64,000 nucleotides of DNA, taken from positions 120,964,001 to 121,028,000 of the forward strand of contig NC_086097.1 of the NCBI RefSeq assembly GCF_963921235.1, given 5' to 3'. Below the pieces are notes generated by a model. It was not told the origin of the DNA and made no database searches. It saw only the letters and a list, made by a program, of their open reading frames with translations. Every line of letters begins with the position of its first letter. The first letter of the stretch is position 1. Positions 1,046-49,616 of the stretch are shown one piece after another. This DNA is from Mobula hypostoma (taxonomy: Eukaryota). The position numbers were made by a program, and so were the translations under genes.

Positions 1046-2410
1046 CTATGTTCCCTCTAAGCTGTGCGTGTGTGTGGGTGCACACACGTTTTTCAACCAG
1101 CGCACAAAGGAAATTAATGTGCGCACAAAAGTTTAGTTACCTAAAATAATGTAGTAATTAATAATAATACTTATTGAAAACAACCTTTTAGCTAAATGTT
1201 TCTGCTAAATAGTTAGTCGGTTTTTCAAATACCACAATGCACGTCACTAATTTACGTCACCTCACCTTTCCTGTTCCAGTTTGTACAGCTGCATCATGGC
1301 GGCAGCCATCTTTGGCGGACAGTGTTCATATCATAAAGTTTACAAAGATCTGTTTCAAATCCTGTAGATAGCTTACTAAGTTTTTATTGAAAAAAATTGA
1401 TTCACTATGTCGAATTCAAAACAAGCAACAGGCGTGAAACTTTACAGGTTTTAAGTGATGTCTTTGATGAACATCACTTTGAGGTAGCATTACAGGTTTT
1501 AAGTGATGTCTTTGACGAACTGGCTGCACTGTGCAAGATTCTGCAAAACAGTGGCCTGACACCAATTAATTCACTTCATTTTGCATGAGGCAAAATTAAC
1601 GAGAAAAGAAGGCAGTATCTGGGAGACAATGTTTCATGGAGTGACAAAGTTAAAGTTTTGTTAAGCCAACAACGGGAAGAAAACGTCACAGTAGATGCAA
1701 GTTCGCTGTTGACTTTTATAAATAGTCTTTGTGTTCATTTAGAAGACAGGTTTCCTGAAGATGAGGTACAAGAATGGTCACCTTTTGATTTCTCCGCAAT
1801 TGTGGATTGTGACTTCACATTTGGTAATGAACAAGTTAATGCCTTATGTCTAAAATATCATGATTTTCTAGCTCAAGATACTGTAATAGTTAGACAGTTT
1901 AATGATTTCAAATTTTCTATGCAAGATAAAATTAAATCCAAACTGATGGCAAACTTTGCTCAAATGGTGGCATTTGTACTTCAGAATGAACAATTTTGCA
2001 ACCTTGCACAGTTGATGGACATTGGGGGAACCTTTCTTGTGTCTAGTGTGGACTGTGAGTGAGGTTTTAGCCTAATGTTTCAACTCAAAAACAAGCTGTA
2101 AAACCGGTTAGGTGAATGTCATTTGGATATATTAATGAGAATCAAAAGCTATCAGTTGGATGGAAGCTCTATTAGTCTAGATAGAGTTTACAAAGAATGG
2201 GTAATTGCCAAAGCCAGGAGAGAGAAAAAAATAACTGAGTGACTTAAATACGTATGTTATTTTGTTGTTATTCTATGCAGTTTTATGTCAAATATTTTGT
2301 AACTGTGCCATGTGTGCATTCACTGCGCACATACTTTTGTCACAGGAAAAAAATTTGCACAACATAAGATTTTTGCACACATTGACTACTAAAAATTAGA
2401 GGGAACGTTG
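1046..2410 (+). mobile_element. Internally deleted hAT transposon nested in the Tc1 element
   Basis: TIRs CTATGTTCCCTCTAA (1046) and TTAGAGGGAACGTTG (ends 2410). 8-bp TSD TCTATAAA / TTTGTAAA. Remnant C-terminal hAT dimerisation domain (SSVDCE*GFSLM..LKNKL*NRL) around 2040-2140. Confidence 0.88.
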
Positions 2411-2771
2411 TTTGTAAAGCTTTGAAATTTGCACAACCTGGCCTTTCCTAATGATGATTGTGAACAACCCATAGCCCTAACAAGCTAATTAAGGTCTGAG
2501 ACCTTGGTAAAAGTTATCTGAGAGCTCAAATCTCTTGAGGTGCCCAAACTTTTGGATGGTGCTCCTTTCCTTTTTTTTCACTCTAAAATTGTACAAAATA
2601 AAAATAATACACTAATCCTGCTTAAAATGTTGAAAATAATGTTTCATCTTTAACTTTAAGACTTTTGGAGATCAGTTCATCTTCTACTCACTTAACTATT
2701 CACAGTAACAGAAATTTTGACTGGGGTGCCCAAACTTTTGCATGCCACTATACGTACATTAAGAAGTAGTA

Positions 2772-3342
2772 CATTCAGTGGCCTCTTTATTAGGTACACC
2801 TTTCCACCTGTTTGTTAATGCTTCTCTAATCAGCCAATCGTGTGGCAGCAATTCAATGCATATGAACATAGAGACATGGTCAAGAGGTTTAGTCATTGTT
2901 CAGACCAAACATCAGAAAGGGCATAAATGTGACCTAAGTGACTTTGACCGTGGAATGATTGTTGGTGGATGTTGGTGGAATGATTGTTGGGGTGGTTTGA
3001 GTATCTCAGAAACTGCTGATCTCTTGGGATTTTCACACAAAACAGTCTCTAGAGTTTACAAAGAATGGTGTGAAAAGTGAAAAACAAATCCAGTGAGTGG
3101 CAGTTCTTTGGGCAAAAAATACTTTGTTAATGAGTGAGATCAGAGGAAAATGGCCAGCCTGGTTCAACTGACAGGAAGGTAATAACCACATGTTACAATC
3201 ATGATGTGCAGAAGAGCATCTATGAACGCATGACACATTGAACCTTGAAATGGATGGGCTGCAGCAGCAGAAGACCATGAACATACACTCAGTGGCCATT
3301 TTATTAGGTGCAGGAAGTATGTAATAAAGTGGCCACTAAGTG
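2772..3342 (+). mobile_element. Non-autonomous Tc1-derived element (MITE-like)
   Basis: TA-flanked TIRs CATTCAGTGGCCTCTTTATTAG and TAATAAAGTGGCCACTAAGTG. Residual Tc1 HTH coding (DLSDFDRGMIVG...SISETADLLGFSHKTVSRVYKEW). Confidence 0.85.
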
Positions 3343-3464
3343 TATTTATGGATTATATCTTCATACATTGCATTGGTATTCATCATTAAATATTTCTGAA
3401 AGTAGTAGGAAAGCAGTTAGTTGCTAATTAAGTATGCCTTAAATTTTCAATGACACAGCAAGAT

Positions 3465-3975
3465 CAACTTTATTCACATTTCCATTTATTATGAATTTGC
3501 TGTGCTGTGTTGGTTAGAGTGTGACATGTAACAAAAAACAACAATATTCAACAATTGTAAAGAATGAAGAATTAGATTTTTAAAAGCTAGAGGTTAAAGT
3601 ATAGAAATCAATAAAACGTGCATAAGTACTTAAATACCAGCATGTATCTACAATGTATGATTTATAAAGGAGTTTGAAGTGTTTACGGTGCAGTGCAGTA
3701 ATGGGAGCGGTAAAAGAGGGCTGTCGGGGGGGGGTCACTAGAATGGTTGATTGGGCTTGGGGGGAAAAACTTTAAAGATGGTGTGAAGTTTTTTTTTCAA
3801 TATGTCTATAGTACTTTCCAGAAGGAGCTTTTTGCAAAGACGGTTTGCAGGGCGTGTAGTGTCCACGCTGATTTTCCTGTCTGCTTTTTTATCCTGGACA
3901 CATACAACTCCTGCAGTGATGGTAGACTACAGATAATGACTCTCTCTGCTAACCTGACAGTTTGCTGTAGATTGC
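3465..3975 (-). mobile_element. Old interspersed repeat, probably a LINE 3' end; second copy at about 34615-35310
   Basis: TGTTGGT.AGAG...GACAT..AACAAAAAA...CAATT.TAAAGA...TAGAGGTTAAA is shared with the 34.6-35.3 kb copy. Confidence 0.5.
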
Positions 3976-18036: not shown

Positions 18037-18631
18037 TTAAACGCAAACAACAGGAATTCTGCAGATGCTGGAAATTCAAGCAACATACATCAAAGTTGCT
18101 GGTGAACGCAGCAGGCCAGGCAGCATCTATAGGAAGAGGCGCAGTCGACGTTTCAGGCCGAGACCCTTCGTCAGGACTAACTGAAGGAAGAGTGAGTAAG
18201 GGATTTGAAAGTGGGAGGGGGAGGGGGAGATGCAAAATGATAGGAGAAGACAGGAGGGGGAGGGATGGAGCCGAGAGCTGGACAGGTGATAGGCAGAAGG
18301 GGATACGAGAGGATCATGGGACAGGAGGTCCGGGAAGAAAGACGGGGGGGGGGGTGACCCAGAGGATGGGCAAGAGGTATATTCAGAGGGACAGAGGGAG
18401 AAAAAGGAGAGTGAGAGAAAGAATGTGTGCATTAAAAAGAGTAACAGATGGGGTACGAGGGGGAGGTGGGGCCTAGCGGAAGTTAGAGAAGTCAATGTTC
18501 ATGCCATCAGGTTGGAGGCTACCCAGACGGAATATAAGGTGTTGTTCCTCCAACCTGAGTGTGGCTTCATCTTTACAGTAGAGGAGGCCGTGGATAGACA
18601 TGTCAGAATGGGAATGGGATGTGGAATTAAA
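18037..18631 (-). mobile_element. Penelope-like element 3' fragment (end of GIY-YIG ORF plus pseudo-LTR)
   Basis: Near-identical to 37247-37830. TSD AAAATGTGAGT at 18026-18036 and 18632-18642. Confidence 0.92.
18143..18178 (-). ncRNA. Minimal type I hammerhead ribozyme motif (Penelope pLTR)
   Basis: Minus strand reads AGTC-CTGACGA-AGG GTCTCGG CCT-GAAAC-GTC-GACT. Helix I is AGTC/GACT, with core CUGANGA, helix II AGG/CCU, GAAA and a GUC cleavage triplet. Confidence 0.8.
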
Positions 18632-22268: not shown

Positions 22269-22596
22269 CAGTTCAGAAGTGTTTGGTTATAGAAGATTGA
22301 CTAACAATACAGAAGGCAATTGAGATTAGTACATTTATGGAGATGGCAGCTAAAGAGGCACAGCTATTAAATGCATCTTCCTAAGTTCATAAAGTTTCTA
22401 TTGACTTTAAGAATAAGATAGCTATTGGTAATCTATGTTACCTTCGTGGCAAAACTGAACATTCAGTAAAAGAATGCTGGTATAAGGATTTACATTGCCG
22501 AAGCCGTGGCAAAATGGGACATATTGAACTCAGCAGTAAAAGTAAGAAGATGCTGTCAACCAAAACCACAGTCATAAAGAAGAATTACTTTTGGAA

Positions 22597-23128
22597 TATA
22601 ACCCCCAGGTTCGAGGGGCTGCGTTAGTGTAGGGAAAGATACTCTCCGACCCGTCAAATTTGTGAAATCTCATTTGTGTAGATGCCACAAAATAACAAAC
22701 AGTACACCATATGCAATTAAACGATTTAGCTTTATAATTCTTAATTTGACCGGAGGGTTAGTAAAGAAAACAAAAAGAAAAGGGCCCATTTTAATCAAAC
22801 AGTCTATTGCGCATGTTGGAGCTCATGACTTTCGTTCTTCATTGATTTCCCCTGGGCATCGTCAACTCCTGACACCATCCCACATCCACTCAGTCTCCGT
22901 TTTGGCATCTTCTCTCTCCATCTTCCACTGAACAAAATCCCTGCGAATACCTTCTCTCAGACACACAGGAAAGAAGCATGACGCCTCTCATTGAATGGCG
23001 CACATTCCAAAGCCCCGTTATCCCTAGTCATGACTCAAACAGTGCTGCCACAGAGAAACCATTATATTAGGAGTGAAAGCTTACAGAGAAACCATTATAT
23101 TAGGAGTGAAACCTTACAGAGCGTTACA
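22597..23128 (-). mobile_element. Solo LTR (532 bp) nested in the Gypsy gag
   Basis: Termini T(A)TAAC...GTTACA. 4-bp TSD GGAA at 22593-22596 and 23129-23132. Internal 33-bp tandem duplication at 23051-23116. Orientation is tentative. Confidence 0.85.
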
Positions 23129-25176
23129 GGAAAAACACAAAGAAACAGGAACAAGATGGAGCATATTGAGGACAGACAAAGACGGCTATTTGGTGACCCT
23201 GTGGTTGGATGGGGCCACAGTGAAGATGCAGTTGGACATGGGTGCTGCAGAATCACTGGTGTCAGAGACAGTTTACAAGGAGAAATTCCATCATCTCACC
23301 CCAGATGGAGTAAAGGTTGACTTAAAGACCTATACTGGTGAGGTTGTTCCAGTAAAGGGAGCAGTGCATGTTACAGTGGAGAATAACGAATAGAGAAAGA
23401 AACTTCCACTCTACATTTTTAAAGATAGCTATCCAGCACTTCTGGGCCACTCGTGGTTGGAGCAGCTCAAACTCAACTGGCGCAAAGTGCATTTGATTGG
23501 TGGGAGCACTTATTTACAAGAGGTATTGAAGAAAAACACAGAAGTATTCAATACAGAACTGGGCCTATGTTAAACTGGCTGCTAAGCCCAACATAATACC
23601 CAAATGCCTGTTCAATGCACCCTTAAATCAAAGGTAGAGACTGAATTAGAAACGCTGGTCCAGATTAAGGTATTAGGTAATGAGCAACTTCAGTGGTTCC
23701 TGTCCTAAAAATGGGTAAATATTTAAGGTTTTGTGGAGACTTCAAGGTAATCATTAACCTGGTCCTTATGACTGAACAATGCCCTCTTCCGATCACTGAT
23801 GACCTTTATGCAGGTTTGGCCAGAGGACAGACGTTTAGCTAGATTGACTTGAGTATATTTGCAGATGCATGTGGAGACAGAGTCATGGGAATTGTCGGCC
23901 ATAGTGATTCTTCAGTTACCAAAGGCCTCTTTTTAACATCACTTCAGCTCCTGCGCCTTTTCAGCAAGCAAAGGACCAGCTCCTGATCAGGTTGGCAGAG
24001 GTGAAATGCTATTTGGATGGCTTACTCGTTACTGGGAAAAATGAGCATGAGTGCCTATAAAACTTGGATGCTTCACTACAAAAATGCAAGGAAAATGGAC
24101 TAAAGGTCCGGAAGGGCATTTGACCTTCAACAGAATATTTGGGCCGTAGGATTGATAACTCAGGGCTTCCCAAGGTACCATCAAAAGTGAAAGCAGTCGT
24201 TTCTGCTCCATCACCACAGAATGTAAGACTATTAAGATCTCTCAAAGGACTACTAACATACTACGCAAAGTTTGTTCCTAACCTAGCTAGAATGCTGAAA
24301 CCATTTAATGAGCTTATAAATAATTCAACACAGTGGCAGTGGACAGATTGCTGTGAAAACATTTTTTTAAAAAGGCCAAAACAATTTTGTCTCAATCTGA
24401 AGCAATCACATCCTTCAACCCGTCATTGCCCATGCAGCTGGCCTGCGACATATAACCCTATGGTGTAGGGGTAGTTATCTCAAACATCATGCATCTGGGT
24501 GAAGAGCTTCCAACTGATTTTGCATCGAGGTCATTAATCAAGGCAGAAAGCCACTAACCCCATATTAAGCAGGAAACCCTCGCAGTTATCGTTGGAGTTA
24601 ACAAATTCCATCAATTCTTCTTTGGTCAACGATTTACATTACTGACAGATCATCACTCCATGACATCAACTTTTGGTCCACGTGCAGGTATTCCTTCCCC
24701 GGCTACTAGTCGAATGTACTGTCGGGCTCTGTTACTTTCAGCACATCAGTATGACATAAAGTGCAGGATGTCCAAGCACTATTCAAATACTGGTGGACTA
24801 TCCAGATTTCCCTTTATTGTTAGAGCTCCAGAGCCATCCCCTGTAAGAGTGCTTTTACATCGAAGAAGCACTTACAGTTCCAATAACTGCAGAGCTAGTC
24901 CAGAAGCACACATGTACTGACCCTGTTCTATCTAAAGTGGTGGACATGATAGCTCACGAATGGAAAGGAGAGCCAACCAAAGAAATTTAAACCTTACCAG
25001 GCTCAACAGAAGGAGCTCACAGTCCAAGTAGGATGCTTACTTTGGAATTACCGTGTCGTCATTCCTCCACCACTGAGAAAGCAAGCGCTTGACCAGCTAC
25101 ATGCAGGTGTTGTGGTGCGCGTGAAAGTAATTACACACAGCTACTTCTGGTGGCCAGTACTAGATGTATCCATTGA

Positions 25177-27135
25177 AGAGAGGGCATTCAGTGATGGAAA
25201 TAAGGAGGAGCTGAGGGCAATACAGAGGGACATGAAAGCCAGGATCAGGGAGGCTAAAGACAGGTACAGGAGGAAGCTTGAGTGGAAACTCCAGCAGAAC
25301 AACATGAGAGAGGTCTGGAGGGGGATGAGGACCATCACTGGGTTCCGGCAAACTAGCAACAGAGGAGCTGAAGGCAGTGTGGACAGGGCCAATGAACTTA
25401 ACCTGTTCTTTAACAGATTTGACATTGTGACCCCTGCCCATCCCCCACATGAGCCATCTGTTGTCGTCCCACAACCAACACATATTCCACTCTCCCCTCC
25501 CTTCACAGTCCCCCACCCTGCTCTCATGACTATACCCCTTCCCCACACGAAACCACCACAGTGGGCTTCACAGCTGAACAGGTGAGAAGACAGCCGAAAT
25601 GTCTCAACCCAAGGAAGGCTGCAGGACCGGATGGTGTCAGTACCAGGGTGCTCATAGCCTGTGCCTCTCAGCTATGTGGAGTACTTCACCATGTATTCAA
25701 CATGAACCTGAGGCTCCAGAGGTTTCCTGTATTGTGGAAGACGTCCTGCCTCATCCTTGTGCTAAAGACGCCGTGCCCCAGCGGCCTCAATAACTACAAA
25801 CCGGTGGCATTGACCTCCCACATAATGAAGACCCTGGAGAGACTTGTTCTGGATCTGCTCCAGCCTATGGTCAGGCCACACTTAGATCCCCTCCAGTTCG
25901 CCTACCAGCCCCGACTAGGAGTTGAGGATGCCATCATCTACCTGCTGAACCGTGTCTACGCCCACCTGGACAAGCCAGTGAGCACTGTGAGGGTCATGTT
26001 TTTTGACTTCTCCAGTGCGTTCAACACCATCCGCCCTGCTCTGCTGGGGGACAAACTGACAGCGATGCAGGTGGATGCTTCCCTGGTATCATGGATTCTT
26101 GATTACCTGACTGGCAGACCACAGCACGTGTGCTTGCAACACTGTGTGCCCGACAGAGTGATCAGCAGCACTGGGGCTCCACAGGGGACTGTCTTGTCTC
26201 CTTTTCTATTCACCACTTATGCCTCAGACTTCAACTACGGCACAGAGTCTTGTCACCTTTAGAAGTTTTCTGATGACTCTGCTATAGTTGGATGCATCAG
26301 CAAGGGAGATGAGGTTGAGTACAGGGCTACGGTAGGAAACTTTGTCACATGGTGTGAGCAGAATTATCTGCAGCTTAATGTGAAAAAGACTAAGGAGCTG
26401 GTAGTAGACCTGAGGAGAGCTAAGGTACCGGTGACCCCTGTTTCCATGCAGGGGGTCAGTGTGGACATGGTGGAGGATTACAAATACCTGGGGATACGAA
26501 TTGACAATAAACTGGACTGGTCAAAGAACACTGAGGCTGTCTACAAGAAGGGTCAGAGCCGTCTCTATTTCCTGAGGAGACTGAGGTCCTTTAACATCTG
26601 CCGGATGATGCTGAGGATGTTTTACGAGTCTGTGGTGGTCAGTGCTATCACGTTTGCTGTTGTGTGCTGGGGCAGCAGGCTGAGGGTAGCAGACATCAAC
26701 AGAATCAACAAACTTATTCATAACAGCAGTGATGTTGTGGGGATGGAACTGGACTCTCTGACGGTGGTATCTGAAAAGAGGATGCTGTCCAAGTTGCATG
26801 CCATCTTGGTCAATGTCTCCCATCCACTACATAATGTACTGGTTGGGCACAGGAGTACATTCAGCCAGAGACTCATTCCTCCGAGATGCAACACAGAGCA
26901 TCATAGGAAGTCATTCCTGCTGGTGGCCATCAAACTTTACAACTCCTCCCTTGGAGGGTCAGACACCCTGAGCCAATAGGCTGGTCCTGGACTTATTTCA
27001 TAATTTACTCGCATAATTTACATATTACTATTTAATTATTTATGGTTCTATTACTATTTATTATTTATGGTGCAACTGTAACAAAAACCAATTTCCCCCG
27101 GGATCAATAAAGTATGACTATGACTATGACTATGA
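25177..27135 (+). mobile_element. Rex1/Babar LINE, 5'-truncated, inserted in the Gypsy integrase zinc finger
   Basis: KAAGPDG, DPLQFAYQ, FFDFSSAFNTI, GAPQGTVLSP, FSDD, YKYLG. Ends with AATAAAG then (TATGAC)n. Confidence 0.95.
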
Positions 27136-27744
27136 TTAAAACATGTCCATATTGTCAGTAAGTGAGAAGTGCTCCTCAACTTGCTCTTTTGCATCCATGG
27201 AAATTGTCTGAAGAACCATGGCAGAGGATTCACATAGATTTTGCGGGACCTGGAGAAGGCCACGTGTTCTTGATCGTAGTGGACACACACAGCAAATGGC
27301 CTGAGGTTGCCATCATGAAGAGCACTACATCTAAATAATGCATTGAGGAGCTAAGTTCCATCTTCAGCTCACAACTCCCGACTGAAGATTTCAAGGCATT
27401 TATGGGAGCAAACAGTATTCAACACATAAGTCAGCCTCTAATGGTCTTGCTGAATGATTCATACATACAATGAAACAAGGCCCTCAGGACTTCAGTGGGA
27501 AATGGACCCCTCAACCCGTGTCTTAGCACTTTCTTGCTGACATACCGCAACACACCTCATGTCACCACCAAAATGGCTCCAGCCACTGCACAGATGAAAA
27601 GACAGCCTGGCACTCAGCTTGACTTGCTTAGACCCCCAAACACAAAACAGATTGTGCTAAATGAACAGAAAATCTAAACAGAAAGATGTGCTGAAGCTTA
27701 GTACAGAAGATTCACAGCAGGAGAGAGAATACTTCAATGCTCAA

Positions 27745-37246: not shown

Positions 37247-38779
37247 AACAGGAATTCTGCAGATGCTGGAAATTCAAGCAGCACACATCAAAGTTGCTGG
37301 TGAACGCAGCAGGCCAGGCAGCATCTCTCGGAAGAGGTACAGTTGATGTTTCAGGCCGAGACCCTTCGTCAGGACTAACTGAAGGAAGAGTTAGTAAGAG
37401 ATTTGAAAGTGGGAGGGGGAGGGGGAGATCCAAAATGATAGGAGAAGACAGGAGGGGGAGGGATGGAGCCAAGAGCTGGACAGGTGATTGGCAAAGGGGA
37501 TACAAGAGGATCATGGGACAGAAGGCCCGGGGAGAAGGAAAAGTGGAGGTGGGGAAACCCACAGGATGGGCAAGGGGTATAGTCAGAGGGACAGAGGGAG
37601 AAAAAGGAGAGTGAGAGAAAGAATGTGTGTATAAAAATAAATAACGGATGGGGTACGAGGGGGAGGTGGAGCATTAGCGGAAGTTAGAGAAGTCAATGTT
37701 CATGCCATCAGGTTGGAGGCTACCCAGACGGAATATAAGGTGTTCCTCCAACTTGAGTGTGGCTTCATCTTTACAGTAGGGGAGGCCATGGATAGACATG
37801 TCAGAATGGGAATGGGATGTGGAATTAAAATGTGTGGCCACTGGGAGATCCTGCTTTCTCTGGTGGACAGAGTGTAGGTGTTCAGCAAAGCGGTCTCCCA
37901 GTCTGCGTCGGGTCTCGCCAACATATAGAAGGCCACATCGGGAGCACCGGACGCAGTATATCACCCCAGCCGACTCACAGGTGAAGTGTCGCCTCACCTG
38001 GAAGGACTGTCTGGGGCCCTGAATGGTGGAAAGGGAGGAAGTGTAAGGGCATGTGTAGCACTTGTTCCACTTACAAGGATAAGTGCCAGGAGGGAGATCA
38101 GTGGGGAGGGATGGGGGGGACGAATGTACAAGGGAGTCACGTAGGGAGCGATCCCTGCGGAAAGCAGAGAGAAGGGGGGAGGGAAAGATGTGCTTAGTGG
38201 TGGGATCCTGTTGGAGGTGGCGGAAGTTATGGAGAATAATATGTTGGACCCGGAGGCTGGTGGGGTGGTAAGTGAGGACCACGGGAACCCTATTCCTAGT
38301 GGGGTGGCAGGAGGATGGAGTGAGAGCAGATGTATGTGAAGTGGGGGAGATGCGTTTGAGAACAGAGTTGATAGTGGAGGAAGGGAAGCCCCTTTCTTTA
38401 AAAAAGGAGGACATCTCCCTCGTCCTAGAATGAAAAGCCTCATCCTGAGAACAGATGCGGCAGAAACGGAGGAATTGCGAGAAGGGGATGGCGTTTTTGC
38501 AAGAGACAGGGTGAGAAGAGGAATAGTCCAGATAGCTGTGAGAGTCAGTAGGCTTATAGTAGACATCAGTGGATAAGCTGTCTCAAGAGACAGAGACAGA
38601 AAGATCCAGAAAGGGGAGGGAGGTGTCGGAAATGGACCAGGTAAACTTGAGGGCAGGGTGAAAGTTGGAGGCAAAGTTAATAAAGTCAACGAGCTCAGCA
38701 TGCGTGCAGGAAGCAGCGCCAATGCAGTCATCGATGTAGCGAAGGATAAGTGGGGACAGATACCAGAATAGATTGTATA
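37247..38779 (-). mobile_element. Penelope-like retroelement (RT C-terminus, GIY-YIG endonuclease, pseudo-LTR), 5'-truncated
   Basis: LRYIDD, LKFT and LPFLD (38583-38783). GVIYCVRCSRCGLLYVGET...RFAEH (37674-38414). 12-bp TSD GCATATGCTAGC at 37235-37246 and 38780-38791. Confidence 0.95.
37341..37376 (-). ncRNA. Hammerhead ribozyme motif, CpG-decayed variant
   Basis: Minus strand reads AGTC-CTGACGA-AGGGTCTCGGCCT-GAAAC-ATC-AACT. Confidence 0.65.
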
Positions 38780-40548: not shown

Positions 40549-40588
40549 CTCTGAGTTCAGTTGTTCTGACATCCTTTCATTCCCTTAC

Positions 40589-40836
40589 TATTATGTTTTG
40601 TAATTTCAAAACATTAAACCAATTCAAAGGAAGACATGGGAGTCCAAAATGTGAGTCTGACTTCATGTTTACTTTAAGCAAGGCGCGCTCATATCATGTG
40701 GTGGCGTGATAACATATGCAATTCACGTATTTATACATATAACACATAATGAATTACTTAAATGAACAAGAATGTTTAATCAAACAATATACATTTAAGA
40801 TTACTCAAATATTATTGAAATATTAAATACCTAACA
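40589..40836 (-). repeat. 3' LTR of the RBM25-carrying element
   Basis: Direct repeat of 43257-43495. Confidence 0.9.
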
Positions 40837-41122
40837 CCTTCCCTGCTTTGCTATAAACTCCAAATCAATACAGAATGTATCTCAACCATATACACAATAA
40901 ACTACATAATCCAACTCGTAATCAGACATTCACAGCATAGTCCCATTCAGGCTTAAATATTTATTGCTGTGGAGGCATTCTTACTCTTGTGTGATAACAT
41001 CTTTCCTGACAAGAGGAATCCCTCTGCTTGTGAAAACAATCTCAGGTTCTGAGACCTCCTCATGGTGGTTATTGGAGTTGAATCTGAGACTGCAGGAAGT
41101 GGATCTGACAACTCCAGGCATA

Positions 41123-41649
41123 TTTCTTCTTTTTCCCTTTGCTTCCATTTTGTGCATCTTAACGTTAGGAAGGTGCATTCAGTTCACTGGAGTATTCTCT
41201 TATTTATCCTTCTTCTGCTACCTTTTCAATCTGATCTCTCCTCTAGGTTTCCTCATCCACATTATCTGATGAACCCTCTGCTTTTGACTCCTTTCTTTTT
41301 GACCTTCCATTCATCCAGTTGGGTTTTGTTCTTTGCATTTACCTTTACAATCAGATTTTTATCTCACACTTGAAGTTCATTCAATAACCTTAATGCATAC
41401 AGAGTAGATACTCAAAAAAACCAAATGCTTTCAACTTTCCTAAAGCTCCTTGAACTCTCTGCTAGTTCAACACCAAGCCACCTTTCGCACATAACTGCCT
41501 GATAAAGATATCAGAAGCTTTCTTAGATGTGTTGCCTACAAAAACTGTTGTTGTTGGACCAGTGCTTTTGTCACTTTCACGTTTCCTCTGAGCAGAATGG
41601 TCCTTCCAATATGCTTTCCAACCAGAGACACAGAGGTTGGCACAAACAC
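41123..41649 (-). pseudogene. RBM25: Intronless fragment of RNA-binding protein 25 (N-terminal RRM region)
   Basis: Translates across frameshifts and stops as VFVPTSVSLVGKHIG / KDH...GPTTTVFVGNTSKKASDIFIRQLCAKGGLVLN*QRVQGALGKLKAFGFFEY / STLYALRLLNELQ / DKNLIVKVNAKNKTQLDEWKVKKK / VDEET*RRDQI...IREYSSELNAPS. This is colinear with vertebrate RBM25 as I recall it. Confidence 0.88.
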
Positions 41650-42194
41650 ACATTTGTTGTCTGTTGGACAACACTTCATGGTGTTCTGCACAGAGACAGT
41701 TGTTCAGTACCTTTCTTAATTTACTTCCAAATTAAGTTGTCTTTATTGTAGGGGATTTGGCATGCAAATGATGAACAGATCTCCAACCAATTTGTAGTTG
41801 CCTCAGCTAATCACGGCCCCACGATACTGGCCCTCCTGTTTTTACCATATACAAGCTCAATGTGGCTTGTTGGTTATGGTATTTCATTCCCACAGCAGTT
41901 ATCTTTTTCTCCAGTATAAGTTCTTTGTTGAATATCTGCAGGTTTCAGTTTAGTATCTTTGACATGCTGTTCAAACTCATTTTGTGGAATGAATGAAACA
42001 GTCAAATCAGTGTCCAAATCGATTTTAATTAATTTGCCATTCACTTTAGGCATAAGCCATATTGTTGTCTATTGTTAGTTTTCACATTGAAGGATAAGGA
42101 TACCCAGTCCTGTATCACTGTCATTATTATCAGATTTTTCATCAACAGCATGCAGATTAGTGCTCTTTTTGAAACTGCAACTTGATTTTCTTTT

Positions 42195-42317
42195 CGCAAA
42201 CAACGCTCTTCCTTCAGTTAGTCCTGACGAAGGGTCTCGGCCTGAAACGTCGACTGTACCTCTTCCTATAGATGCTGCTAGGCCTGCTGCGTTCACCAGC
42301 AACTTTGATGTATGTTG
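42195..42317 (+). mobile_element. Penelope pseudo-LTR mini-insertion inside the Gypsy gag
   Basis: 14-bp TSD CTTGATTTTCTTTT at 42181-42194 and 42318-42331. Begins with an inverted 10-nt pLTR terminus CGCAAACAAC. Confidence 0.9.
42220..42255 (+). ncRNA. Minimal type I hammerhead ribozyme motif
   Basis: AGTC-CTGACGA-AGGGTCTCGGCCT-GAAAC-GTC-GACT, identical to the 18143-18178 copy. Confidence 0.8.
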
Positions 42318-43256
42318 CTTGATTTTCTTTTATCTTTTTCTCTTTGCTGTTCAGTACATTTATTTTTGTCCACCCTGTATGAGTCCTACTTTGTTGTAAT
42401 TTCTGAAAGTTTTGCCTTTAAATTTGCATTGAACTGTGTAAGTGAACCCCTGCCACAACAGTAACACAATTTGTTTGGCATAGCTAGTTTCTGTTAAGAC
42501 ATTGAAATTTTGCTATTGCTCATTTTCATTCCTGATTGCAACTCAATTGCATCTCTATCTGCTGTTTCTATTTATACAGCCATTTCAACTGCCCTTTTAA
42601 ATGTAAGTTGTGCTTCAGTTAGGAGCTGTTTTTGAATGCTTTCTTGTAAGATTCCACGGACTAAATGATCTCATAGTACATCATTAAGTCCATCATTGAA
42701 CTAACAGTGCTCAGACAATTTCTTCAGGACTCCCCTTCCTTTTGATTCCACTTATGAAACCTAAAGCATTCTGCAATCAACAATGGCTTTAGTTCTAAAT
42801 GTTCCTGTGTTACCTTGACAATATTAGCAAAGCTCATTTCTACTGTTTTAGTTGGAGCAAAATTTGAAGCAAACTGTATGCCTTTAAATCCAATGCGCTC
42901 AGCAAAATTGGTATTTGTTTCTCATTGACTATTTCATATGCTTCGAAGTACTGTTCAATTTGCTCAGAATATAAAATCCAGTTATCTGTTGTATAATCAA
43001 GCATGTCTATCTGTCATTCTGATGTAGCCAGCCATTTTTGCTCTTTTTTATGATTCTTATCATCCAGTACTCAAATTTTTGAACCCTGAATTCCTCCATT
43101 TACTGCTATTTTTCAACTTGACTGCTTCTGCATGTGCTGGACTGCATTCTTTACTTGCTGTCCCTCACTGTGTTTTTTTTTTAGTTCAAGCATCTCGTTG
43201 TGCTTCAACAGATCAGTACCCATCTCAGATTTATTTTAAAAATACCTTGTCATCAA

Positions 43257-43495
43257 TGTCGTGTTGTGCAACTTCAAAGCATTAAACTGATAAAGACACA
43301 GGAGTTCAAAATGTGAGTCTATCTTTGTGTTATACTTTAAGCAAGGCACACACCAATCATATGATAGCATGGTGACATATGCAATTCACATATTTATACA
43401 TATAACCTATAATGATTTATTTAAACAAGAAGGCTTTATAAAACAATATACATATAAGATTAGTCAAATATTACTGAAATATTAAATACACAACA
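43257..43495 (-). repeat. 5' LTR of the RBM25-carrying element
   Basis: TGT...ACA ends; direct repeat of 40589-40836. Confidence 0.9.
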
Positions 43496-43829
43496 CTTAC
43501 GGCATCCGTTCTGCTCTTCTGTAAGTATATTGTGTTTGTCTGAGTGGTGATTAGTTGTGAGATACATGATGATACAATTTTATATGTAGTTTGTAAACAA
43601 ATAAATTGATGTTATCTGTGATTTCTCCTTTAAGTAAGAAGTATGTTCTACTTTCTGTCAAAATGTCGAGCACTTTTTCAGGATTTTTAATAAAATTGTG
43701 ATATGTATTAACAGGTACAGATGAAGACAAATAAACCTTATATCAATAATTATGAATATTATCACTGACTGTTTTTCAGTTATTGACTTCTGTATGTTAT
43801 GTGTGTTTCAAATAATTATGTCCACAATT

Positions 43830-48886: not shown

Positions 48887-49595
48887 GAAGGCTCGTGCTT
48901 GAAGGCTTCCCCCGGACAAGCTCTGACTGGTGAAGGAGGAGTTCAAGAAGATGGAGGAATTGGGGATCATACGACGGTCTGACAGCCCATGGGCCTCCCA
49001 CCGGCACATGGTGCCCAAGGCAACGGGGGGCTGGAGACCATACGGTGACTACCGCAGACTGAATGAGGCTACAATGCCAGACCACTACCCTGTGCTGCAC
49101 ATTCAAGACTTCACAGCAAATCTGCACGGCGCAAGGATCTTTTCCAAGGTAGACCTCGTCCGGGGTTACCATCAAATCCAGTACATCCGGATGACATCCC
49201 CAAAACAGCACTCATCACCCCATTCGGACTTTTCAAATTCCTCCGAATACCGTTCGGTCTAAAGAATGCCGCATAGACTTTCCAGCAGCTAATGGACGCG
49301 GTGGGACGCGACCTGGACTTTGCATTCATCTATTTGGACGACATCCTCATAGCCAGCAGTAGTCGTCAAGAGCATCTGTCCCACCTCCGCCAGCTCTACT
49401 CCCGCCTGAGCGAATTTGGCCTCACAATCAACCCAGCCAAATGCCAGTTCGGACTCGACACCATCGACTTCCCGGGCCATAGGATTACTAAAGACGGGGC
49501 AACCCCGCTGCCCGCCAAGGTAGACGCGGTCCGCCACTTCCCCCAAGCCAACACAATCAAAGACCTGCAGGAATTCGTGGGTATGGTGAATTTCT
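48887..49595 (+). mobile_element. Isolated Gypsy RT fragment
   Basis: SPWAS, GDYRRLN, FSKVDL, PFGL, PFGLKNA, FIYLDD, KCQFG. Confidence 0.9.
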
Positions 49596-49616
49596 ACCTC
49601 GTCCGGGGATACCATC

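Follow-up and report, generated by a model that had tools for sequence, protein, structure and literature searches.

A Gypsy-type LTR retrotransposon in the window (the whole 64,000-nt stretch of DNA analysed here) carries a piece of spliced RBM25 mRNA in the place of most of its pol gene. The element is an old, defunct copy from a large family of non-autonomous Gypsy elements, which is built on one RBM25 mRNA capture. The account favoured here comprises a single capture of RBM25 by a Gypsy element, mobilisation in trans, the formation of deletion derivatives and neutral decay, with the captured piece carried along as passenger cargo. As a whole, this account is given a probability of about 85%.

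The window element shows the features by which Ty3/Gypsy elements are recognised: two direct LTRs (TG...CA), a target site duplication (TSD) within the range of 4–6 bp, a tRNA-type primer binding site (PBS) and a polypurine tract (Table 1). The LTR pair is 82.4% identical across 238 aligned columns, and the ATA in which the 3′ LTR terminates is put down to decay. The consensus behind the 5′ LTR, obtained from a tally of 32 LTR ends, is complementary to the 3′ end of a tRNA gene that occurs 16 times in the genome (control 0) and was identified by ARAGORN as tRNA-Ser(GCT) at all four loci tested. The gag and protease align to residues 6–174 and 286–413 of a full Gypsy polyprotein (P0137), in which Pfam places protease, RT, RNase H and integrase in this order. 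The same order is found in RT-bearing sisters of the element. The window copy has lost the part from RT to the integrase core: the P0137 alignment covers gag and protease alone, with no RT, RNase H or integrase core in the window element. Both comparisons bear out the initial annotation, which had the RBM25 insert replacing RT, RNase H and integrase and being followed by the integrase tail. The same annotation described the element as structurally complete, which holds for the LTRs, polypurine tract, TSD, gag and protease; the PBS is present in a decayed form, and every frame is broken. Because of this decay, the Pfam search with the three minus-strand frames of the window copy returned no domain, and the PDB sequence search with a 44-aa piece of it returned no match. 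The sister copy L006 gave an RVP match with an E value of 0.002, below the cut-off.

Table 1. Features of the RBM25-carrying Gypsy element, in window positions.
Feature	Position	Strand	Remarks
Gypsy element carrying the RBM25 piece	40589–43495	-	2907 nt
TSD, 5′ side	43496–43500	.	CTTAC on the + strand; perfect 5-bp pair
TSD, 3′ side	40584–40588	.	CTTAC on the + strand; perfect 5-bp pair
5′ LTR	43257–43495	-	239 nt; TGTTGT start, ACA end
3′ LTR	40589–40836	-	248 nt
Decayed PBS	43245–43255	-	8 of 11 positions complementary to tRNA-Ser(GCT) 3′ end
gag, capsid to zinc knuckle	42330–43035	-	tblastn with P0137 and P0121; ends approximate; broken by stops and frameshifts
Short interspersed repeat, later insertion	42190–42327	.	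private to the window copy
gag/protease linker, aspartic protease and first RT-region codons to the 5′ junction	41704–42189	-	broken
Spliced RBM25 mRNA piece including the RRM	41123–41703	-	exon 3 end, exon X, exons 4, 5 and 6, most of 7, short later-exon remnants
Exon starts in the insert	exon X 41697; exon 4 ~41651	-	
Integrase C-terminal tail and 3′ untranslated part	40853–41122	-	frame differs from the RBM25 insert
Polypurine tract	40837–40852	-	directly before the 3′ LTR

The short repeat (~120–140 nt), which sits between gag and protease, has kin elsewhere in the window at 37269–37390 and 18071–18192, and the three copies are 93–96% alike. Decayed stretches of Gypsy pol with LINE-like interruptions are located at 22271–27653 and 48930–49597; they are more distant, with no DNA match to the RBM25 family. 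A 332-codon frame at 47–1045 presumably resembles a Tc1-type transposase, as its motifs suggest.

Copies of the family align successively to the exons of the host RBM25 gene, with the introns gone (exon numbers are labels of this analysis). Five exon junctions are clearly spanned in the window copy and eight in the longest copies, from which eight GT–AG introns of 1,093–6,053 nt are missing. The full capture consists of 1,072 nt of RBM25 mRNA from nine exons, and the window copy is a short form. The ~530 bp initially regarded as the captured extent has thus to be replaced by about 1.07 kb, about twice the window insert. Within the window copy itself, the span first proposed for the insert (41123–41649) is right at its 3′ limit, while the start lies near 41703, which adds ~54 nt consisting of the exon 3 end and exon X. 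At its 3′ end, the insert is rich in A because it encodes Lys and Glu there and not because of a poly(A) tail, in keeping with the initial description of an insert with neither poly-A nor TSD of its own.

The host RBM25 gene was located by a protein query in the searched genome (3.48 Gb, 200 contigs) at G000:C1:99.79–99.84 Mb, at a distance of ~21 Mb from the window. The residues it encodes agree with those of the family insert, and the closeness of this RBM25 to a shark protein suggests that the genome belongs to a cartilaginous fish. Identity to the spliced host RBM25 is 84.3% for the window insert and 84–90% for the first 30 loci. The protein search with the ORF of a sister copy gave 190 hits among 643 candidates; among the 120 hits listed, the named ones are nearly all RBM25 and the others are hypothetical or unnamed RRM proteins. 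The window copy matches a shark RBM25 with an E value of 2e-32. Thus, the expectation of RBM25 as the best protein match was confirmed both by the hits of the sister ORF and by the residue match of the host gene. The sequence comparison identifies the donor as the RBM25 gene of the same genome, copied after removal of its introns. Because teleost rbm25b ranked top initially, horizontal acquisition from bony fish was considered; it was rejected because the genome's own gene matches residue for residue. According to the RBM25 layout in PMC3553564, the long copies hold the whole RRM and the first part of the RE/RD-rich region; unlike RBM25 proper, as laid out there, the captured piece lacks the PWI domain, the proline-rich beginning and the greater part of the RE/RD region. 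The family inserts are therefore RBM25 fragments and not RBM25 genes. A search of the genome with the Pfam PWI model gave three matches, none of them in RBM25. A divergent PWI-domain exon (L033, G000:C2:244677884-244678039) belongs to neither RBM25 nor the C76 gene.

Upstream of the RRM, the insert includes exon X, which has 48 nt, is in frame and stop-free, is bounded by AG/GT and contains its own ATG. Its host counterpart lies at G000:C1:99832586-99832633 (in L039). Exon X is present, nearly identical in the Heptranchias protein, in two proteins of Heptranchias perlo (XP_067833824.1 and XP_067833825.1) and in one unnamed protein; one shark isoform is four residues longer there. It was missing from the ten bony-fish and tetrapod RBM25 proteins retrieved. 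The reading of exon X as a poison exon is excluded by its 48-nt length, its in-frame and stop-free sequence and its presence in the Heptranchias proteins. A retained intron is excluded as well, as the extra 5′ piece is a separate AG/GT-bounded exon 5.8 kb inside the intron. The copies preserve an old RBM25 splice form with exon X, found here in cartilaginous-fish sequences and one unnamed sequence only. Two exon X markers are linked (p 2e-5), which points to some subfamily structure, and these markers do not follow the length classes of the copies.

The parent element was approached through the RT-bearing sisters, which were searched for with sequence at the RT start of a teleost Gypsy protein. 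Out of 6,259 candidates, 150 matches were scored, and 25 loci were fetched. All 25 have gag and protease in common with the window element, none matches RBM25, and most of them share sequence as far as the 7-mer TGCCACA. At this point, the sisters read GGATGA-TGCCACA-GCAGTG, the host exon 3 reads GACTCC-TGCCACA-ACT, and the chimeras read GGATGA-TGCCACA-ACT. The 5′ junction thus has an overlap of 7 nt, a length that rough arithmetic would expect in about 5 of 10,000 random joins, and the pol frame runs across it into the RBM25 frame, in frame with gag-protease. The exon-3 sequence directly upstream of the junction matches the host gene and one site with three mismatches (control 3). Since this sequence is practically host-only, a single 5′ capture point is indicated. 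Among 20 copies picked by exon 8, the common 5′ junction was seen within 1.5 kb in 14, and the RRM exons are kept in 12.

At the 3′ junction, the long chimeras follow host exon 10 up to the 9-mer GAGAAGAAA and then continue into the integrase tail, which has the identical 9-mer, in a frame that differs from that of RBM25. The 9-mer is all purine and is therefore less unlikely by chance than the 5′ 7-mer. The 3′ junctions are heterogeneous among copies. A second 3′ junction in L166 and L176 joins the exon 9 end to a point in the tail a few bases further along, where the two share a different short motif. These mixed 3′ junctions and the exon X markers that do not track copy length speak against the favoured account to some extent, as they possibly reflect recombination that occurred repeatedly or 3′ switching on more than one occasion. 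Of eight RT-bearing sisters with a scorable tail, half have lost the integrase core at or beside the same purine site with no cargo. In the RT-bearing loci L072, L089, L091 and L073, the integrase core is lost and the zinc-finger region is joined to the tail at or near the purine site of the RBM25 capture. Such cargo-free losses point either to a further deletion family or to a hot spot of recombination. Internal tandem duplications also occur, affecting RBM25 exon 7 or the gag-protease boundary (L131, L016).

The insert therefore has intron-less exon junctions, flanks that are discontinuous parts of one LTR element, 7-nt and 9-nt microsimilarity at the switch points, and neither poly(A) nor its own TSD. 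With these features, the window element appears from its sequence to be an LTR-mediated retrocopy with secondary amplification. Capture by RT template switching, as the initial annotation had proposed, agrees with the intron loss and the junction microhomologies.

The size of the family was estimated from a 24-mer over the 5′ junction with up to two mismatches allowed, which is found at 994 sites (control 0). Of 30 loci chosen by similarity to the window copy, 13 pass this junction filter, which raises the estimate to ~2,300 copies (roughly 1,600–3,900, given the small sample). The RT-type junction is found at 2,095 sites (control 0), and the chimeras make up about one third of the chimeric and RT-type junctions together. 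A 24-mer of exon 8 is found at 210 sites, the host gene included. Hence the amplified family anticipated from the window copy exists. Relatives with a continuous pol, the existence of which had been named as a sign of a one-off insertion, turned out to be the parent family that displays the capture site.

Of 100 exact junction sites listed, 60 were fetched; 57 of them have protease, 52 have gag, 52 have over 400 nt of RBM25, and both LTRs lie within 5 kb in 18. The mean identity of sixteen LTR pairs is 80.4% (74.5–87.7), and their divergence corrects to about 0.23 per pair, which is not an age, as no calibrated rate was applied. Five copies, including the window one, have five different perfect TSDs. 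Among the other 17 copies with two LTRs, a perfect 5-bp TSD is present in 4, and 13 have at least 3 mismatches. The latter number exceeds the expectation from decay alone and counts against the favoured account; many of these loci are probably mosaics, nested or mis-paired. The copies are dispersed over many contigs and both strands, share their junctions and have their cis-acting parts in common with an RT-bearing partner, which together describe a non-autonomous amplified LTR family. Among the 36 fetched copies with a scorable tail (24 of the 60 could not be scored), exon 8 is kept in 6, part of exon 9 is present without exon 8 in 14, and 16 are short like the window copy. The protease region does not tell 49 chimeric copies from 20 RT-bearing ones (distances 0.204, 0.207 and 0.205; diagnostic sites 0/363), so both types either spread in one burst or recombined freely. 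Pairwise divergence has a mean of 17.9% over 3,303 pairs. The loci L015 and L020, which lie 2.1 Mb apart on contig C91, are 98.9% identical and probably arose by segmental duplication.

The chimera is not confined to this assembly. In fourteen sequencing runs from eight organisms, 29–54% of the sampled words of one copy are present, and in the four runs examined, contigs bridge the chimeric junction with more than 31 letters on each side, in organisms B, F and I, one of which may be the source species. The search for look-alikes in the other genomes scanned found none.

Selection was examined in 82 of 90 copies (8 short alignments were dropped) over the 195 codons that span exons X to 7, a set that represents ~4% of the estimated family. 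An open RBM25 frame is found in none of the 82 copies, with a mean of 3.1 frameshifts and 1.6 stops. Non-CpG changes have an omega of about 1.08 at a frequency of up to 5% and of 1.18 at 5–15%, so the dN/dS check proposed for the RBM25 part gave a neutral value for rare changes (omega about 1.1). Changes at 15–80% frequency comprise 17 non-synonymous and 6 synonymous sites (omega about 1.5, p 0.51). The region from exon X to exon 7 contains 317 indel events, 282 of them distinct, and none is common to more than 3 of the 82 copies. This absence of widely shared indels fits the need for an open frame and, equally, a star-like burst from few masters. As the family is star-like, selection tests on the replicating lineages are almost powerless. 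The host sequence differs from more than 80% of the copies at 20 sites, 19 synonymous and 1 non-synonymous. These were rejected as a mark of selection on the element, because the single amino-acid difference is host-derived, as indicated by the comparison with the shark protein, and the synonymous ones are unpolarised; most simply, they record the evolution of the host gene itself since the capture. Neither an open frame nor purifying selection, which would characterise a domesticated or functional retrogene, was found in the 82 copies, and their decay is neutral. A protease-RBM25 fusion protein was found neither among the 150 listed of 1,475 hits nor among 90 hits in libraries that may lack the proteins of this genome. 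The RRM fusion proteins and inflated RBM25 annotation foreseen initially thus find no backing in these copies, and present-day fusion proteins are unlikely.

The history would begin with a Gypsy element in which gag-pro-RT-RH-IN forms one frame and which co-packages RBM25 mRNA. The RT would jump from the integrase tail to RBM25 exon 10 at the shared 9-mer, copy about 1,072 nt back to the exon 3 end and return to the element at the shared 7-mer, just after the protease. The product would keep both LTRs, the PBS, the polypurine tract, gag and protease, and for this reason could be copied in trans by the RT and integrase of its sisters. It may then have multiplied in the same burst as these sisters until it made up about one third of both types together. 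Additional slippage within exons 7–10, which are rich in purines, would give rise to the shorter derivatives, the window copy among them, and the examined copies would subsequently decay neutrally. Throughout this process, the captured piece most likely travelled as a passenger, a status supported by the sisters that lost the integrase core at or next to the purine site without any cargo. The parent gene, the intron loss, both junctions, the frame, the copy numbers, the deletion series and the decay are observed; template switching, trans mobilisation, the sequence from long to short forms and the passenger role are inferred.

The same origin is compatible with a cargo that was selected. In this scenario, a Gag-protease-RRM(-RE/RD) polyprotein acts in cis, the RBM25 piece is freed in the particle, and its RNA binding aids packaging or processing. 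The graft in frame with gag-pro, the rarity of shared indels in exons X–7 against the amplification of post-RRM deletions (6/14/16 of 36) and the rise of the chimera to about a third of the family speak for such a role. However, an in-frame graft has a one-in-three chance, purine repeats account for the positions of the deletions, the changes at intermediate frequency (15–80%) show an omega of about 1.5 (p 0.51), and deletion forms free of cargo arise repeatedly too. Selection for the cargo is thus considered unlikely, although it is the most probable of the alternatives. The related notion of the captured RRM as a working part of the element, either as a released RNA-binding fragment that aided the spread of the pol-less form or through mass expression that disturbed host splicing during the burst, is unlikely to the same degree. 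A rare intact or domesticated copy could exist among the ~2,000 beyond those examined.

Two other routes concern how the insert arose and how it spread. Spread by DNA-level duplication or by gene conversion into existing Gypsy loci, instead of retrotransposition, would suit the 13 of 17 LTR pairs without a recognisable TSD and the segmental duplicate L015/L020. It is made very improbable by the five different perfect TSDs, by the divergence of at least 10.8% between the members of all remaining pairs of copies and by the distribution of the copies over many contigs and both strands. Still less credence is given to a LINE-made processed pseudogene of RBM25 that was inserted into a Gypsy copy, followed by deletion of pol and spread of the product. 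The machinery would have been at hand, as the window is rich in frames that are, by their motifs, probably LINE-type RT. Against this route, the insert stops within coding exon 10, well short of the 3′ end of the mRNA, has neither poly(A) nor its own duplication and sits at both ends on exact microhomologies with pol. Capture by template switching within a Gypsy particle, followed by trans mobilisation, hence remains the preferred explanation.

In Tan et al. 2016 (PMC5131818), LTR-mediated retrocopies of animals are ascribed to double template switching. As in the family described here, they are partial spliced mRNAs between discontinuous parts of an LTR element. Both switch points show microsimilarity, the copies lie in sense orientation and are potentially in frame, they have neither poly(A) nor a TSD of their own, and they can be retroposed secondarily as non-autonomous elements. 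The numbers given there are 3 retrocopies per genome in mosquito, 7 in zebrafish and 10 in chicken, about half of them LTR-made, whereas one capture has led here to an estimated total of about 2,300 copies, of which 994 were counted, and to a nested deletion series. Maize Bs1, as presented in the same paper, is likewise an LTR element with captured exonic pieces and switch points common to all copies; it has one to five copies and three parent genes, in contrast to one parent gene and about thousandfold more copies here. Chong et al. 2014 (PMC4299795) describe captures by crocodilian endogenous retroviruses, namely nectin3 in CrocERV31 and KIT-ligand. In these, too, host mRNA has taken the place of an element gene, the vertebrate is not a mammal, and the resulting lineage replicates in the genome. 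The crocodilian elements are, however, retroviral, replace env or nothing, include six nectin3 insertions and have ORFs under purifying selection, whereas here a Gypsy element has lost pol and none of 82 frames is open. No published report of an RBM25-carrying Gypsy family was found in the paper listings and abstracts searched; Repbase, Dfam or published supplements may already contain the family. The main text of PMC13320880 does not mention RBM25.

The finding represents a known kind of gene capture, with a mechanism published by Tan et al. 2016 (PMC5131818), at an unusually large scale. One capture from a conserved splicing-factor gene has left some two thousand copies with joined exons, compared with 1–6 copies in the published cases considered. 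Such copies will mis-map RBM25 reads, and retrocopy pipelines that drop repeat-masked hits, a filter applied in PMC13320880, may overlook the family. At the same time, it is an unusually complete vertebrate fossil of LTR gene capture, in which the parent gene, the parent element, the switch points, the frame and the deletion series are all readable. Taken together, all copies would make it testable whether captured cargo aids the spread of a retrotransposon.
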